From Vermamoeba vermiformis (taxonomy: Eukaryota), in contig JBEWZL010000227.1 in assembly GCA_045837725.1 (NCBI GenBank), forward strand, positions 124,001-188,000: a DNA stretch of 64,000 nt, written 5' to 3'. Numbering within the stretch: the first letter of the stretch is position 1; every line of letters starts with the position of its first letter. The position numbers and the translations under genes are program-made. Under the pieces are notes generated by a model, which was not told the DNA's origin, ran no database searches, and worked only from the letters and a program-made list of their open reading frames with translations. Positions 13,717 to 60,981 of this stretch are shown here, one piece after another.

Positions 13717-14282
13717 ACAGCGAGTTACACGTGAACTGCCTTCTAAATTCTTTCGGCAGATCAGAAATCTCCGCAGAAAATAAATTGTTTTAGCTCAAAA
13801 AACGCGTGCACGAATCTGATTGACATTGGAATGATCATATCCTACTCTAAAGCGAATATTATTAGGTTATATGCAGCTTGGGAAGATTCGTTTTCGGCAT
13901 TTTTGGATTTCAACAATTTCTTGATAGTCGATTTATCAATGTATTAGATAATCCGACAAACTGCACGTGTAATAATTTCTTTACTTAAGCTAACTATTAC
14001 TCCGATCCAGGCAACTTTAGATCTTAAAGTCAAACAAAGTCAATGAGAGAACCGGCGTATTACACAACAGTTGTGAACGCAAAAACGAAAGCTATACTAC
14101 TGAACTTATCGTTAGCTCTACTTGTATCAATTGCGAGCTCCGCAGCATTAACTTAGGGCAACTTGCTTAGCAAAAACCTTAATAATTATGAAGATCTAGC
14201 AACAGGTAATATGATAAATCTCGTATTTTACATGATATAAAAGTATAGTAATTACAATGGTGGGTTTTGTTCGCTCGTAAAC

Positions 14283-17200: not shown

Positions 17201-20200
17201 AGAATTGAAAACTTACTTGATATCGAGTCTCAGCGTCCTTGTACTTGTTGTTAATGGCCATAATGGAGTTATCCATATCGCGCATTCTGTTCTTCATCTC
17301 GTTGATTTGCTTGTTCAACGCTTCGTTCTCGTTTTCAACGTCGACCAATCGGCTCGCAGCGCCTCTCAAACGAGTGATGTCGCCTTCAAGCTCGGACTTT
17401 TCAAGCATGTACTTGCGCTTGTTGTCCTCAATAACGAACTCCAAGTGCTTCAAGCGAGTGTTCTCAGCACGCAATTGCTCCAACTTCTCGTTCAAGCTGG
17501 AAGCTTCAACGGACTGTTGTTCCATCGAGTAAGCACGTGACTCGAGTCTCTTGCGCTCTTCTTGCTCTTCCTTCAATTGACGCAACAACTTCTCCTTCTC
17601 TTGAACAGCGAGATCGAGGCTCTGTTGCAATTGATTGACGCGTTTTCTGTTGGCTTGCTCATCGCTCTCGGTCTTGCCAAGGAGCGCCTTTTGAGTGTTT
17701 TGGTCTTTCTCCAAGTTCTCCAACAAAGCACGCATGTCACTTGCGTCGCGCTTAGCGTGTTCAGCTTGTTGTTGAGCAGTGGCTAAGTCAGTAGTCAAGA
17801 CGGTTATTTGAGCATTAAGAGTTGCAACAGATGACTCGAGCGAAGTAATAGTCTCTTTGTGCTTGTTAACTTGAGTCTGGAACTCAGCACGAGTGTCGTT
17901 CAATTGCTTCTCGAGCTGTTCTTTCTTGTGTTGCAGATCCATGGTAATGTTGTCCTTAGATAAGAGATCGTGTTGACGCTTCTTTTCTTCGACTTCATAG
18001 GCTTGCAAACGGTTAACTAAGTCAGCCAACTCTAGCTTCTTAAGCGACAATTCGGTCTTCAAGTCATTAATGACGGTACTGTTACGGGCGGATTCAGCTA
18101 CAAAAAAAAATTAATAAAAGAGTAATAAAAAAAATATATAGCAATAATCTATTATTCATAACAAAGCATTTCGCATTGATAGGAAGGTAAAAAAGCAAAA
18201 AAGATAAGAGCACAACACCTCCGATTCCCAGGTAGTCTCCTACCCCAGTACTAAGAAGGCCTGAACAAGCTTAACTTCGCTGATCGGACGGGAAGCGGTG
18301 CATTCTTGTTAGTGTGGTCGTGCCCGAGAACAAAGTCAATTTGATACCCAGGTCGCTCCTTACTAACCAAAAATACTTCCACCATCCACATCACACATCC
18401 GCATCCGCGTTTAATTTAGGAAAACGTTGAAAAAGAATACGTACCTTGGGATTTAATTTCATTCAGCTCATCGGTCAATTTCTTAATCATAGTTTGGGCA
18501 GCATCGGTCTCTTGGATCTTGGCTTGGTAGTTAGAAGTCATTTCTTGCAATGAAGCGGATAACTCGCGAGACAAAGCGGCCTAATTGAATACTGTTAACA
18601 TCTATCGAGCCAAACCATAAATGAAGCTGCTTACGCGATCATCGAGTTGCTTCTTCATGTTGGAGATCTTTTGTTCGCACTCGATCTTCAACTTGTCGTT
18701 AGCTTCACGAAGGATTTCAATCTCAGCAGATTGATTTGTCGATTGCTTAAGCTCTTCAAGTTCCATCTTCAAGCTCTCCTTTTCTGTAAGACAAAGGTTA
18801 AAATTGGTTCATTTAATAAAAGAAAAGATCCGCCACGTACCAGTAATAGCTTGGGTGTATTCCTCGAGCATTGATTGATCGAACTGGCCTGCCTTGGATT
18901 TAGCTTGGAGCTCGTCAGTCAATTTCGCGTTCTCTTCTTGCAAGTTCTTGACCTTGGACTGGCTCAACGACAGATTCGCTTTGACCATCTCCAATTCTTT
19001 CTTGACTTGCAAGGACTCTTCTTCGCGTTGAGCAAGTTGGAAGTTAAACTCACGAGACTGCTCGTCGCATTGAGTGCGCAAAGCGTTGTTCTCGTTTTGT
19101 AAAGCATCAAACTGTTGCTCGAGATCTGCGTATTGGCCTTGAAGTTCTTGCAGACGTTCTTCAGTCAAAGCGCTTTCTTCAGCCAACTTCGCTTCGATCT
19201 CCTCGTGGATCTCTTCAGCCTCCTTAATTTGAGCCTTCAAAACTTCAATTTCTTGGGCTTGAGAGTCGATAGTAGCTTGCATGTTCTTCATGCGGCCTTG
19301 AGCTTCCAACTCAGCGCTGCGGTCGTTAGCCAACAGCTCCTTAATTTCTTCAGCGGCCTTCATTTGTTGCTTCAAAGTAGCGCAGTCGTCTTCTAACTTT
19401 TTGATCTGTTGCGAATCCTCGCCGATCTGCTTTTTATACTCTTCTTCGCGTTGCTCGTATGAAGCCAACTGATTAATATATTAATAAATTGAAAATAACA
19501 CGAACTTAACGATAATACCTTTTCTTTGAGGTCATCAACCTCAGCTGCGGATCCTTGAGCGAGTTCACCTTGAGCCTCTTCGAGCAATCGTTGAGTCTCA
19601 ATTAAATTACGCTCCTTGTTTCTGAACTGAGCAATCACGCCTTCCAATTCAGTCAACAAGCTAGCCTTCTCGTTTTCGAGACTCTCGATCTGTTCGCGCA
19701 TCTGAGTGAGATGCTCGTCATCTAAATAATCAATTAGATATGACTTAAATTGCCTTAAAAGACTATAGTACTTACGAGCTGGCTCCTGGTTAATACGGCT
19801 GCGTTTCTTTGAAGCACGGGGTTCATCCGCATCCAAAGCAAGAGGACTCAAAGGACCGCCAGTAGCGTAGTTATCAACGACCATATCCATGTTGTCGAAG
19901 TCAAGACCACCGTCAGTGATGAGGGTAGGGCTCAACAAGCCACGAGGCATAGTGCTAGTGGGAGCCCAAGTCTGACGTCTGTTCTTGGCTTGCTTGCTGT
20001 CTCTGCTGCTGGAGACAATGTAGTGGGTAAGCTTCTCGAGCTTATCGTGCAAGCGTTGCTTTTCTTCTTCGGTCTAAATGAAGTTCATTAGGATCCGTTA
20101 CGTTCAATAAATAAACGCATCTGTGTCGACTTACTCTTTGTTTTTCATCTCGCAGCAATTCAAGCTCCTTCATGGTGCTATCGGAGATGGCGGTAGTAAC

Positions 20201-48048: not shown

Positions 48049-49167
48049 ATGGACCTCATATTATCAATGACTCTAAAGTCTCTAAAGTTAAATTTTGTCA
48101 AAATTTTCGACGAAGCTGCGATCCGTTTCACCAACCAAAAAAAACTGCCACAAAGGCTTAATATCAATCACTATCTTCCATGTGATATTAATTCAATAAT
48201 ATTAAACAAATCAAACATCACTCGGTTGGAATTATGTAAAGCCGATTTAACAACGGATCTATTTTCCTATTTGTTGGACAATTTAAGTGACAGCATTACA
48301 TATTTAGACATATCAAATAGGCCCAAACAACAAGTGCCACCTGAAAATGAGATTTCGTTTGAAGGATTGAACAAATTGGATCAATTTTTATCGACCAATC
48401 GGACGTTACGGACAATTGTATTAGATGGCGCGATTGAACCAGAACCAGAAGTGCAAATTAATTTTGGAGAGTCATTGAAGATCAATAATACACTACAAAC
48501 ATTAAGTTTAAGAGGCTGCTGGCTACCAGATCAAGTCGTGTTAAAAATAGCGGATGCGTTGAAAGTCAACAAAACATTAACGAGACTTGAATTATATGAG
48601 AATCACTTAGATATGGACACCTATGCAAAATTAGTGGCGTCGTTGATTCAAAATGACACTTTGACAGGTGTCAGTTTTGGCCGGTACGAACAATATTACG
48701 AATTCTTTTACGAAGTGGCAGATCTGATCGAAAAAACAAAATCACTTGAAAGTATTGAAGTATCATATACAGCTGGTGATTATGACTATAGTTCTGGATT
48801 AGAGGACATAATGGATCGGTTGAAATGTAACACTACGATTGCAACTTTTTTAATGCAAGTCAGTTTCTACGGAGGTGCAAGAATCCATGAATTATTCAGT
48901 GAAAATTACACGCTGACAACGACCAGTTTGGGACCACACGAATTAGTCCAAAATTATTGCGCTCGAAACAGATCCCATCAACGACAACTCCGAGAAAACA
49001 TAATAATATTTATCCATAATATTGCTAGGGATAATTTAATAAGAGAAAAATTGCCCGAAGAAATTTGGCGACAGATCTTCGAGTACATTAAATATCCGAA
49101 AGCAAAATCTTTTGGATCTGCTGTTCGCTCAATTTTTATGAAGTATAGAACATGTATAGTTGAATAA
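48049..49167 (+). CDS. RNI-like LRR ORF with C-terminal F-box-like motif (3' part of a possibly decaying gene)
   Basis: LKINNTLQTLSL and LKVNKTLTRLEL repeats; tail FIHNIARD..KLPEEIWRQIFEYIKYP. Confidence 0.75.
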   Translation: MDLILSMTLKSLKLNFVKIFDEAAIRFTNQKKLPQRLNINHYLPCDINSIILNKSNITRLELCKADLTTDLFSYLLDNLSDSITYLDISNRPKQQVPPENEISFEGLNKLDQFLSTNRTLRTIVLDGAIEPEPEVQINFGESLKINNTLQTLSLRGCWLPDQVVLKIADALKVNKTLTRLELYENHLDMDTYAKLVASLIQNDTLTGVSFGRYEQYYEFFYEVADLIEKTKSLESIEVSYTAGDYDYSSGLEDIMDRLKCNTTIATFLMQVSFYGGARIHELFSENYTLTTTSLGPHELVQNYCARNRSHQRQLRENIIIFIHNIARDNLIREKLPEEIWRQIFEYIKYPKAKSFGSAVRSIFMKYRTCIVE

Positions 49168-49514
49168 ACTGTGTTTTGTTTGATCATTTGAATGGTAATT
49201 TTATGGTGGCAACATTAGAGAAAAGGATCCATGCCAAGGGATCGACGTTCCACAAATAGACCCAATACAGGCAGACCAAAAATCTTTGCAACAATCTATT
49301 CAGCGTTAAATACGATGTTGCGGTTCACTTCATGACGTTGTTAGTCAACGAGTGATTGCGCTGATCTTGGATGTGATCCCAAGGCATTTTGTCTCTCGCT
49401 ATTAGAGCAGAAGGTGTTAAATCTCAGAATTAATTTATCGCTATTACTAAAACCTTCGGAATCGCTAAGCACATGGCAAAAAAAAAGGATCTGATCGATG
49501 GGCAAAAAAGGAAG

Positions 49515-49648
49515 CGGACCAGGCGGGACTTGCACCCACAACTACTCGTATTAAAGAACTTTTGAAGTGAGAATTCAACAATTTCTTGTGAAAACCAGGA
49601 TGATACCCCGAAGGGCAGGCGAGGGCTCTACTTTTGAGCTACTGGTCC
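49515..49648 (-). ncRNA. tRNA-shaped RNA (134 nt) with a structured insert in the anticodon arm
   Basis: Acceptor GGACCAG/CTGGTCC + G, D arm GCTC/GAGC, anticodon stem CTCG/CGAG enclosing 71 nt, variable loop TAGTT, T arm GTGGG-TGCAAGT-CCCGC, T6 terminator 5 nt downstream. Confidence 0.85.
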
Positions 49649-50195
49649 GATAAAAAATTATCTCTCTAGCGGTTCAAATTGGGTGGTAAAAAACAGAACG
49701 TAAACATTGTGGGAGAATTTTATCCACAAGTACTTCGCAAAATATCCACAATTGCGTACAACAACTGCGCGATCGTCAAAACAGACTTTGTCGATCTGAA
49801 TCCGTTCTGGGTCTTTGAGGCTAAAACGGATTAATTGTGGGTCGATTGTTTAATCTAGAAGCACTCAAGTGTTGCAATCACATTGCCGGCCAGGCTATCA
49901 ACCCTTTTGAATTGTTAGTCTTTGAATTTAAAATTTAATTATTAGTTGTAAAGCAAATTTATATCGAGGCATTAAAGCGAATTATTAGTTGTTCGCTTTC
50001 CTCATCAAGAATAATTTTTTTGAGATAATATCTGATTTTTAAATACGGTGGATTTGGCCTTAAAATGTTTGCATAAGGTCATCAACGCTTCTTAAGAGAG
50101 CTAGTATTAGTAAAACAATATTTAGTGCTACATATTACAACATTGCCCGAAAGCAATCGCAAAATTACATGTTAATTGGAGTGTTTTTCAATTTC

Positions 50196-53100
50196 TTATT
50201 GTTGCGGTGGCGGAGGACGAGGCATGACAGGGCTCTTCATTTGACCGGGCATCGGTCCCTTCATTTGCCCTGGGGGCGGGAATCCGTTGCCTGTTGGTGG
50301 TGATCCATACATGCCAGTCTTTGGCGGACCTGGCGGGAATCCCATGCCTGGCGGATGCTGGCCTGGTGGGAAGCCGGGACCAGGACCTTTCATGGGACCA
50401 GGCGGGAAGCCAGGGCCTGGAGGGAAACCAGGTCCCGGGGCCTTCATGTGACCAGGAGGAGGTCCAGGTGGCGGGAATCCGTTGCCTGTTGGTGGTGATC
50501 CATACATGCCAGTCTTTGGGGGACCTGGCGGGAATCCCATGCCGGGGTGCTGGCCTGGTGGGAACCCAGGGCCAGGATGCGGTGGGCCAGGCGGGAAGCC
50601 TTGACCAGGGCCAGGTTGAGGCGGACCTGGTGGGAAGCCTTGACCGTGGCCTTGTTGTGGTGAGCCAGGAGGGAAACCTTGGCCCTGTTGCGGTGAACCG
50701 GGCGGGAATCCTTGACCGTGACCAGGATGAGGCGGGCCTGGAGGGAAGCCTTGACCAGGACCAGGTTGAGGTGGACCTGGTGGGAAGCCTTGGCCTGGTG
50801 GAGGGAAGCCATTGCCAGTCGGAGGAGAGCCAGGGATCGGTCCAGGTACAACACCAGGTGGCAACATTACAGGGCCCTTGGGACCATTGTGCATAACAAT
50901 AGGGCTCTTAGGCTGTTGGCCTGGAGGTGGCATTGGGCCTTTAGGACCCGGAACAGCGCCGGGTGGGAATCCACCAGAGAATCTCTTGGCGTTGGGAGGA
51001 GCTACACCAGGTGGGATTCGAGGCATGCCCGGTGAACCAGGTGACACGGGACCCTTTTGGTATTGTTGCTTTCTCATGCCGAACAAGTTCTTTCGTGCAT
51101 TGTTGAGTTCTTTCTCCAACCGCATAATCTTCATCTGTTGCTCGAACTCGAACACCTTGCTGCCCACGACACTCGTGACAGCAACACTGGCATCGTTGTC
51201 GTCCAAATCGCTGAACTCGCCTGCCTGTTGAGCTGCCTCGACAAGTTGACTGCAAGACGTGGCAACTTGACGTGCAGAAGTGCTCAACGATTTGTTGGCC
51301 GCCGAGTTAGGATCCGACTGCAAAAGTGAAGTTAGGTTAAAATGCTATATTGCTTAATGTACTTAAGATGTACGTACTCTGACACGTGATGCAGTGACAA
51401 TACGAGCAGTTGCCGTAGTGACTGATCGAGCAGCTACTAACAACGCTTCTTCAGGGATCTTTCCGCTGGCAACTTGAGCAGACAAACCGACCAATCGTTG
51501 CACTGATTCACTGGCTTCCTTAGCCGCTGAAATGAGACCGTTGGCCCAGATAGGATCGTTGTTGTATTTGTTTTGAACTTGGTCAGTGTTGCTCGAGCGT
51601 TCCTTTTGAACAGCGGCTGCTGATCGAACCAGATCTGCTGTGGCGCCCATAATAGCTTGAGATGCGTCGAAAATAGCAGCAGAAACCGATTCCTATACAA
51701 ATAATAGTGTTAGGGGTATATAAAGAAGCAAATAATCGAGAATCAATTGCGGATGTGGATCGAGATCTTACCTTATCAAGAGGAGCGCTAGGATCGCGTG
51801 GTTTGTAGTTAGGTCTGTTCTTCTTAACTTGCAATGAAGCCTCGTTAATCGTCCTCAACGCATTAGCCAATTCCATCTCGGCCTTAGATTGCAAGTTATC
51901 ATCGTCGATGAGCTTCAAGTGCGCGCCACCAGGCAACTGATTGACAGCTGCCACGACGTCACCAATGAGACCTGTGACACCAAGTGATGTCTCTTCCAAG
52001 CGTGCAAGGTTGTCGTCTGATTTGGCTGCATCGATAACATCCAGAGATGCTCTAAAGTGAAACAAAAAGTTAGATCTGGATCTATTCCAAACTTTCCAAA
52101 AACAAATATGGTGATGCGTGCATAAAATTAATATTAATGACATAACATAAATAAGGCTCCAAAACTTACCTAGCAACGTTTTCAGCAACGGACATGAGCT
52201 TGGCTTGCAACTTAGGGTCGTTCGACAAGTTGACAGCACCACGAGCGCTACGCAACAAGGTCTTGACACCTTCTTGCACGTTCTTCGCGGCCTTAATGAC
52301 GTCGTCTTGATTGTTCGAGAACAAGATATCTGACAAGCCGTTGGTCACCTGACGGCAGCTCTGCATGACGTCTTCAGGACGAGCTCCTGGTAGGGCCGAC
52401 AAGTCGTCTAATATAATGTCATTAGAATAAGTACCAAGTCGATAGTATGGCTTTTTGAGCTTACTCAAGTAGGAGGAGATCTCCAACATGACTGAATCCA
52501 GCTCACGTTCTCGTCGTTCGAGACCGCTTGAAGTACCACGAGCCAAGTTGATCAATTGAGAAGCAGCGTCGCCAGATGACTTAACACTAACGAGCAGTGT
52601 CTGTTGAGTAATGTTGTCCTTGCCGCCCTTTCGCAAGTGATCCTGGCAAGACATCAACAATTGCTCAGCAGTGATTGCCAAAGCCTTAGCAGCGGTTAAA
52701 ATGGCTTCTTGTGTCGTGCCATCGCTTGTATTTTGAGCAGCCTATTCATTCAAGTGTCAGTCAGATCGAGATGCGAAAAAGCGATCAGATCCCAAAAAAA
52801 AAATAAAAATATGCTATGTCAGCCGAAAGATGGTTTGTGAAAACTTCCATGTATTTTCAAGTTCGGAATTTGTGCATCATGCATATTTAAATAAAGGAGT
52901 GGAGATAGGACTTTTGACTTCACGATCGAATCCACCAAAAAATTCTTATGGGAGCTAAACCCCGCTCCAAAATAAAATTTTCATAGGACGTACCTTAATA
53001 CTAGCCTCGCTCATCTTCAAAACAGCAGCAGACAAGTTCTGAGCAGAAGCACCGAACGCATCCACGCCAACTTTAGTCGCTTCAGCTGACTCGATAATAG

Positions 53101-60897: not shown

Positions 60898-60981
60898 GAC
60901 GTCGTGACCGAGTGGTTTTAAGGTGGTGGCCTGCTAAGCCATTGGGCTTGTCCCGCATGGGTTCGAATCCCATCGACGTCG
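60898..60981 (+). tRNA. tRNA-Ser(GCT)
   Basis: GACGTCG/CGACGTC acceptor, anticodon arm GTGGC-CT-GCT-AA-GCCAT, long variable arm, GGTTCGAATCC, G73, oligo-T terminator. Confidence 0.95.

Follow-up and report, generated by a model that had tools for sequence, protein, structure and literature searches.

The window, by which we mean the whole 64,000-nt stretch of DNA that was analysed, contains one copy of a tRNA-shaped element, a multi-exon talin gene (Pfam talin and I/LWEQ domains), an open reading frame (ORF) facing it and two further RNA genes. The talin gene lies on the same strand as the element and ends 548 nt upstream of it. Apart from talin, the genes are the following.

18207–18325, minus strand: solitary 5S rRNA gene (104.7 bits), with a T6 run after it
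48049–49167, plus strand: ATG-started ORF of 372 amino acids that converges on the element and for which Pfam gave no family at E ≤ 0.001
49515–49648, minus strand: whole tRNA-shaped gene of 134 nt, found by Rfam RF00005 and by ARAGORN in intron mode
60898–60981, plus strand: normal tRNA-Ser(GCU) with a canonical T loop (58.7 bits), with a T6 run after it

Relatives of the talin numbered 37 proteins at E ≤ 0.001 among 7998 candidates scored, and identity was 45% for the closest relative, 25% for an Arcella species (the best among those with a taxon name) and 20–23% for animal talins. With this gene as a neighbour, the host is read as a eukaryote that is probably an amoebozoan. The protein carries a Pro/Gly-rich C-terminal extension of about 260 amino acids with GFPPGPP-type repeats (50196–50985, minus strand) that is absent from the 45%-identical relative. 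The repeat DNA shares a 12–13-nt identity with the 3′ end of the tRNA-like gene, which looks coincidental (low-complexity coding sequence), and a candidate primer-binding site (the reverse complement of the 3′ end plus CCA, with two matches in the talin tail) was rejected, as the GFPPGPP coding repeats explain it.

The tRNA-shaped gene and its flanks are composed of the parts below, in which a raw position r equals 49649 minus the coordinate.

49651–49662, minus strand: A/T-rich stretch GATAATTTTTTA immediately upstream, a possible upstream promoter element
49642–49648, minus strand: acceptor stem 5′ strand GGACCAG, 7 of 7 pairs with 49516–49522 (pair probability 0.98–1.0)
49625–49639, minus strand: D arm GCTC-AAAAGTA-GAGC, with a 7-nt loop and a single G
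49619–49623, minus strand: anticodon stem 5′ strand CTCGC, pairing with CGAG at 49545–49548; the fifth pair is C-A
49604–49617, minus strand: hairpin 1, TGCCC-TTCG-GGGTA, in both the minimum free energy (MFE) and centroid folds (pair probability 0.71–0.87)
49588–49603, minus strand: 16-nt linker TCATCCTGGTTTTCAC, including CTGGTTT, which is complementary to the acceptor 5′ strand
49554–49587, minus strand: hairpin 2, imperfect and weak (−4.5 kcal/mol)
49545–49549, minus strand: anticodon stem 3′ strand ACGAG, placed by Rfam and ARAGORN
49523–49544, minus strand: variable loop TAGTT and T arm GTGGG-TGCAAGT-CCCGC, with G at position 55
49515–49522, minus strand: acceptor 3′ strand CTGGTCC and discriminator G, which is U in organism B (see below)
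49478–49509, minus strand: putative Pol III terminators read from the sequence, T6 at 49504–49509 and a back-up T9 at 49478–49486
49551–49612, minus strand: insert of 62 nt, assuming a canonical 37/38 cut
49555–49616, minus strand: intron of 62 nt as placed by ARAGORN, after position 33

All of the literal features described in an earlier, sequence-only reading are present, namely the 7-bp acceptor stem, the D and T arms, the T6 run, two hairpins with their linker and an anticodon stem (CTCG/CGAG) that encloses 71 nt. The T stem consists of four Watson–Crick pairs and one T-G pair, and in hairpin 1 the potential anticodon GCC is base-paired to the 5′-terminal part of the insert. Downstream of the discriminator G, CTTCC leads into T6, which starts 5 nt downstream and is followed 18 nt further on by T9. 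That T6 resembles the runs after the 5S rRNA and tRNA-Ser genes of the window, which supports the proposed Pol III-type ends. Class 2 genes of Pol III are characterized by internal A and B boxes, an oligo-T terminator and occupancy by the polymerase. Box C/D and H/ACA motifs were not seen by eye in the insert.

Covariance-model and heuristic searches placed the gene in the tRNA family. The Rfam tRNA model RF00005 aligned over its positions 1–71 of 71 with 41.1 bits against a gathering score of 29, at E-values of 2.8e-05 for the whole window and 1.8e-07 for a 401-nt region, and the alignment put 66 nt of insertion in the anticodon loop. As a whole, the tRNA-shaped element is beyond chance. ARAGORN with introns allowed reported a 'tRNA-Stop(tta)', that is, tRNA(UUA), with a 62-nt intron after position 33, and in its default bacterial mode it called neither the element nor a tmRNA. 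The isotype weighs little because relaxed ARAGORN settings also give spurious calls; the artefacts were a 'tRNA-Pro(ggg)' at 50426–50580 in the talin repeats and the tRNA-Ser re-read as Pro with an intron. Between 49400 and 49800, Rfam at E ≤ 1 returned the tRNA and one spurious lncRNA only, with no Vault or Y RNA, and identity as Vault RNA, Y RNA or tmRNA was rejected on the lack of a model match in that interval and of an ARAGORN tmRNA call. The sequence-only reading had inferred a non-standard ncRNA and had listed a match to an Rfam family or a known intron-containing tRNA as evidence to the contrary; the Rfam family match and the ARAGORN intron call formally provide such evidence, and by that same test the element is a tRNA-family gene with an intervening sequence and not an unclassifiable RNA.

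Folding of the whole RNA gave a z score of −2.16, with 4 of 200 shuffles equally good, and the insert alone gave −0.68, with 44 of 200 shuffles equally good; the whole-RNA folding signal stems from the tRNA body. In the ensemble, the acceptor, T and D helices had pair probabilities of 0.85–1.0, hairpin 1 about 0.86, hairpin 2 about 0.4–0.6 and the closing CTCG/CGAG stem approximately 0.33. Three architectures span 2.3 kcal/mol: the MFE fold (−38.1 kcal/mol), the three-way junction of the earlier reading (−37.6) and a third (−35.8) in which a local anticodon arm bearing GCC is accompanied by a giant extra arm. An alternative fold in which CTGGTTT of the linker pairs with the acceptor 5′ strand had also been proposed. 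This pairing costs 13.6 kcal/mol and has a probability of 0.0, a 7-nt complement to that strand arises in 3.5% of 20,000 insert shuffles, and the fold is negligible at equilibrium, although it could possibly form as a co-transcriptional intermediate. The 5′ arm of hairpin 2 (CAAGAAATTGTTGAA) shares a 15-nt exact identity with non-ORF DNA at 13909–13923 on the minus strand (BLAST E 0.003–0.006), which we judged to be probably chance.

The third architecture corresponds to an unspliced tRNA with a local anticodon arm (CUCG-CCUGCCCUU-CGGG, GCC) and an extra arm of about 54–67 nt, an extreme form of the class II type. This fold lies only 2.3 kcal/mol above the MFE, but its extra region, at 67 nt, far exceeds the range known for V arms, and hairpin 1 competes with the local arm and dominates the ensemble. 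Moreover, the best Rfam alignment sets the insertion in the anticodon loop, position 37 would be C regardless and the basal helix of the arm is lost in a relative described below. Nematode tRNAs with V arms and Gly anticodons do exist (nev-tRNAs; PMC3333845 and PMC4300185), and under this fold alone the element shares with them a Gly-type anticodon and an extra arm; its extra region is 3–4 times longer and its lineage is another. We consider this explanation very unlikely.

The top half of the molecule (acceptor, D and T arms) is normal and tRNA-like, with an elbow (D loop AAAAGUA, T loop UGCAAGU) that is unusual but natural. An identical D arm and T loop UGCAAGU occur in a Planctomycetota tRNA-Thr(UGU) (L002, 7698–7772; Rfam 68.6 bits), a bona fide tRNA that also has a similar variable loop and T stem but is bacterial and without an insert; its anticodon arm is normal, and its acceptor stem is unrelated to that of the window gene. 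A second bacterial tRNA-Thr(UGU) (L008, G009:C57:5717-5767) combines the D loop AAAAGUA with the T loop UGCAAAU. This elbow type is rare, being present in 1 of 20 genomes of the order of L002 and in 2 of 401 genomes of the phylum sample, and these genes show that working tRNAs use an elbow of the A18/G55 type. The D loop AAAAGTA accompanies G55 in the window gene, the two Planctomycetota tRNA-Thr genes and one phage element, and it accompanies canonical T loops in two phage tRNAs. The sequence-only reading had proposed tertiary contacts U8-A14, A15-U48 and G19-C56, which are putative, and had noted that the usual G18/U55 contact is changed at both positions, to A18/G55; covariation of the two positions is plausible, but the two phage tRNAs show that it is not strict. 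We found no paper linking A18, G55 and the tRNA elbow.

The phage element (L003, 9613–9682, and L004, 2431–2500; IMG/VR contigs with phage-like gene packing) is tRNA-like, shares its D arm and T loop with the window gene and has an acceptor stem of 7 bp. Its 5-bp 'anticodon stem' encloses 26 nt, not 7; the element lies between divergent ORF blocks and is called neither by Rfam at the gathering score nor by ARAGORN. One metagenome hit with the D-arm and T-loop anchors (L001) was discarded as a chance match, as no Rfam family was found in L001. The pattern for the 3′ half had 0 matches in genome contigs and 0 in viral contigs, and the insert and junction patterns had 0 matches in viral contigs.

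When a Pol III tRNA gene has an insert in its anticodon loop, that insert is normally an intron, and the element could accordingly be a genuine intron-containing tRNA gene whose insert is removed to give a decoding tRNA(GCC) through a 37/38 cut, or tRNA(UUA) or another tRNA through another cut. It shares with the intron-containing nuclear pre-tRNAs of animals, fungi and Amoebozoa a Pol III-type gene, a full cloverleaf and an anticodon-loop insert that pairs with the anticodon (hairpin 1). Both Rfam and ARAGORN accept it, a textbook loop CUUUAAU is present on the 3′ side, and the length of the insert falls within the range of 6–133 nt that PMC11946776 gives for eukaryotic tRNA introns. The anticodon would depend on the cut site: GCC with C37 for 37/38, GCC with A37 for 36/37, GCA for 35/36, GUA for 34/35 and UUA at or before 33/34. 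The 37/38 cut is geometrically possible, but it leaves the loop CUGCCCU with a pyrimidine, C37, and a C-A mismatch at 31–39, the poor tRNA-Gly(GCC) that the sequence-only reading had foreseen.

The signals for such a cut were also absent. The anticodon–intron (A-I) pair of pre-tRNAs involves positions 32 and −3. In the element, C32 faces U at −3 and finds no G as a partner among the 10 nt that precede the 3′ stem strand (UUCUUUAAUA), so that no proximal anticodon–intron pair can form; the four pairs of the would-be central helix, aligned by hand, are C-U, U-U, G-U and C-C. A scan of all cut pairs for a bulge-helix-bulge, using our own coding of the motif geometry, gave none with a 5′ cut at raw 29–38 and a 3′ cut at raw 92–101. 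According to PMC10485636, Amorphea, including Amoebozoa as well as animals and fungi, likely have in common a four-subunit TSEN that removes introns at 37/38 only, the proximal anticodon–intron pair is critical, and the bulge-helix-bulge is a 4-bp helix between two 3-nt bulges bearing the splice sites. The insert meets no known splicing rule and none of the known routes fits: compared with nuclear pre-tRNAs it lacks the proximal A-I pair and the 3′ bulge, and it would leave C37 and C31–A39, so the earlier statement that it is not a canonical intron stands.

A cut after position 33, where ARAGORN places the intron, recalls the disrupted tRNA genes of Archaea and Cyanidioschyzon merolae (PMC4033280). 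The element differs from these in having no bulge-helix-bulge at any splice pair that would restore the anticodon arm, and the host lineage is not known for such introns (PMC10485636). A UUA product would, besides requiring this cut in a lineage thought to be restricted to 37/38 (PMC10485636), be a suppressor tRNA, since this organism uses TAA as a stop. Its genetic code looks standard: a talin exon of 1128 codons has no stop, the talin gene ends CAA CAA TAA, and the 12 stops within tblastn alignments fall in gaps (8 of 12) or within a few residues of HSP ends (4 of 12), a pattern that reads as that of short introns. On these grounds, a stop-reading tRNA(UUA) with a reassigned code was rejected. 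Among the papers listed in literature searches on tRNA introns in Amoebozoa and in Vermamoeba, none concerned a host tRNA gene of such a kind.

Further departures from a decoding tRNA do not depend on the cut. A functional decoding tRNA has a purine at 37, a paired 31–39, U55 and a discriminator that is constant within an isoacceptor. The element has C37 and C31–A39 in the GCC reading, G55, and a discriminator that is G in the window and U in organism B, and the last two also set it apart from intron-containing nuclear pre-tRNAs. An aminoacylated tRNA would not be expected to vary in its discriminator between close relatives.

The stretch or parts of it are present in 20 of the 24 public sequencing runs listed, from 14 studies; these include samples from water, wastewater, soil and biofilm, and 6 of the runs are recorded as RNA. 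Four runs (X4, X8, X11 and X24), chosen because they contain the stretch, were compared in detail, and X12–X20, with small word shares, were left out of the evidence. In X4, a wastewater run marked 'RNA?', one contig is identical over 49503–49638 and continues through T6; because it reads through T6, it is probably derived from DNA. In X8, a size-fractionated biofilm metatranscriptome, one contig is identical over 49533–49624, a 92-nt fragment across the insert. No spliced joint was seen in the four runs, which counts weakly against an intron and proves little, because ordinary RNA-seq is poor at capturing spliced mature tRNAs, which are about 72 nt long.

Run X11 is that of a second, related organism (organism B), in which one contig covers 49481–49632 with six substitutions and one indel. 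The discriminator changes from G to U, G64 changes to A (turning U50-G64 into U50-A64), and four changes affect hairpin 2, in its loop and its 3′ arm; the hairpin keeps an apical stem by a one-base register shift. The locus is orthologous because the 3′ flank is in common. Between the two organisms, 2 of 49 exon nucleotides differ, the insert has four clustered changes and the 34-nt 3′ flank has one indel; by this comparison, the gene is conserved no better than its 3′ flank.

Run X24, an RNA run labelled organism A, yielded 7 reads among 12,966,262 records read. None exceeded 95% likeness to the window, and the reads derive from a diverged allele or paralogue (90–95% similar), so that the exact window copy accounts for 0 of the 7. 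All seven reads cross into the insert. Across the 28 exon positions covered, all three changes lie in the T stem and keep its pairing: G52-C62 becomes A52-U62, a two-sided compensatory change, and U50-G64 becomes U50-A64. The chance of such a structure-preserving set under the null model is 0.0025–0.012, as estimated from one relative and 7 reads, with two of the three changes taken from the loose ends of 3 reads. The insert of this relative is homologous, with a hairpin 2 loop that is 3 nt shorter, 5 nt inserted and two substitutions that disrupt the basal helix of the window's model; because it is present, the constraint acted on an insert-bearing gene. From these sequences, the insert-bearing gene looks maintained and expressed, with carry-over of DNA into RNA libraries being possible.

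These comparisons bear on each explanation. For an intron-containing tRNA, an insert that evolves by indels is intron-like and a structure-preserving T-stem change suits a working tRNA as well, but the X24 relative alters the would-be U33 unless the cut falls exactly after raw 32. Taken with the GCC product that bears C37 and a C31–A39 mismatch, the impossible A-I pair and the varying discriminator, this makes a spliced decoding tRNA unlikely. The claim of a selected two-hairpin module that displays a guide or binding site does not hold up against the thermodynamics or the limited comparative data: the insert folds no better than its shuffles (z −0.68), indels and a register shift distinguish hairpin 2 between relatives, and neither a target nor a function or partner was identified.

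A transcribed relic would be a functionless tRNA gene that Pol III still recognizes, its anticodon loop having been interrupted by an insertion or an internal duplication too recently for the stems to have decayed. Pseudogenes of tRNAs are common, the gene is no more conserved than its 34-nt flank in the comparison with organism B, the insert is thermodynamically ordinary in an aberrant anticodon loop, and none of the X24 RNA reads came from the exact window copy. Against this, the stems and the terminator are all intact, and the insert-bearing X24 relative, seen in RNA, combines the two-sided T-stem change with repair of a G-U pair (chance of about 0.01). The earlier view that the gene is not a decayed tRNA is upheld by the four intact stems and by the T-stem pairing kept through two-sided change, and we regard a relic as a somewhat unlikely explanation.

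A second copy or allele at 90–95% similarity would also be expected of a tRNA-derived mobile element (SINE) or part of a repeat. A SINE is characterized by many dispersed, degenerate copies whose flanks are unrelated. The window, however, has a single copy, the 3′ flank shared with organism B makes the locus orthologous, and a tRNA 3′ half that closes a perfect acceptor stem is unlike SINE architecture; this origin is highly improbable.

The reading we favour, to which we give slightly less than an even chance, is that the gene specifies a tRNA-derived RNA that is made by Pol III, remains unspliced and has no part in decoding. Four features speak against a decoding tRNA: the loop is aberrant, splice signals are missing, the code is standard and the discriminator varies. 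The intact stems together with the structure-preserving change in an expressed insert-bearing relative argue that the gene is maintained. We suggest that this Pol III-type, tRNA-derived gene of an amoebozoan-like eukaryote, single-copy within the window and set between two convergent protein genes, would be transcribed by Pol III and its transcript trimmed by RNase P/Z. As the insert breaks the rules of the TSEN expected in this lineage, the primary transcript would most likely persist unspliced after end trimming, as a non-decoding tRNA look-alike of about 134 nt. Its cellular role would most likely be to mimic tRNA and so occupy the factors that bind tRNA, and its lower domain may evolve fast.

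A broader proposal, which we put forward as doubtful, is that the gene belongs to a small family of selected, never-spliced tRNA-chassis RNAs in free-living amoebae, whose core would serve as a handle for factors and which would act as tRNA mimics or decoys and not in decoding. It is conjectural to a like degree that, within such a family, the core with its rare A18/G55-type elbow engages tRNA-processing, export or surveillance factors, and similarly questionable that a fast-evolving three-way-junction domain replaces the anticodon arm.

Non-decoding RNAs built on a tRNA chassis include tmRNA, mascRNA, the gammaherpesvirus TMERs and vault RNA, in which a tRNA-like acceptor/T domain or a tRNA-type internal promoter is joined to a non-tRNA domain. 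The element differs from these in having no tag reading frame and in carrying its extra domain inside an otherwise complete cloverleaf. Such scaffold RNAs are known mainly from bacteria (tmRNA), viruses and the ends of a few animal lncRNAs.

The significance of the locus differs with the explanation. A relic would be ordinary. If the insert is spliced, the amoebozoan endonuclease tolerates a missing anticodon–intron pair or cuts outside 37/38, which bears on how TSEN architecture limits intron position, a question raised in PMC10485636. Should the RNA prove stable and unspliced, a complete tRNA cloverleaf would here have been re-used as a scaffold in an RNA that is cellular and encoded in the nucleus, and the RNA would offer a handle on which tRNA-binding factors read the top half alone.
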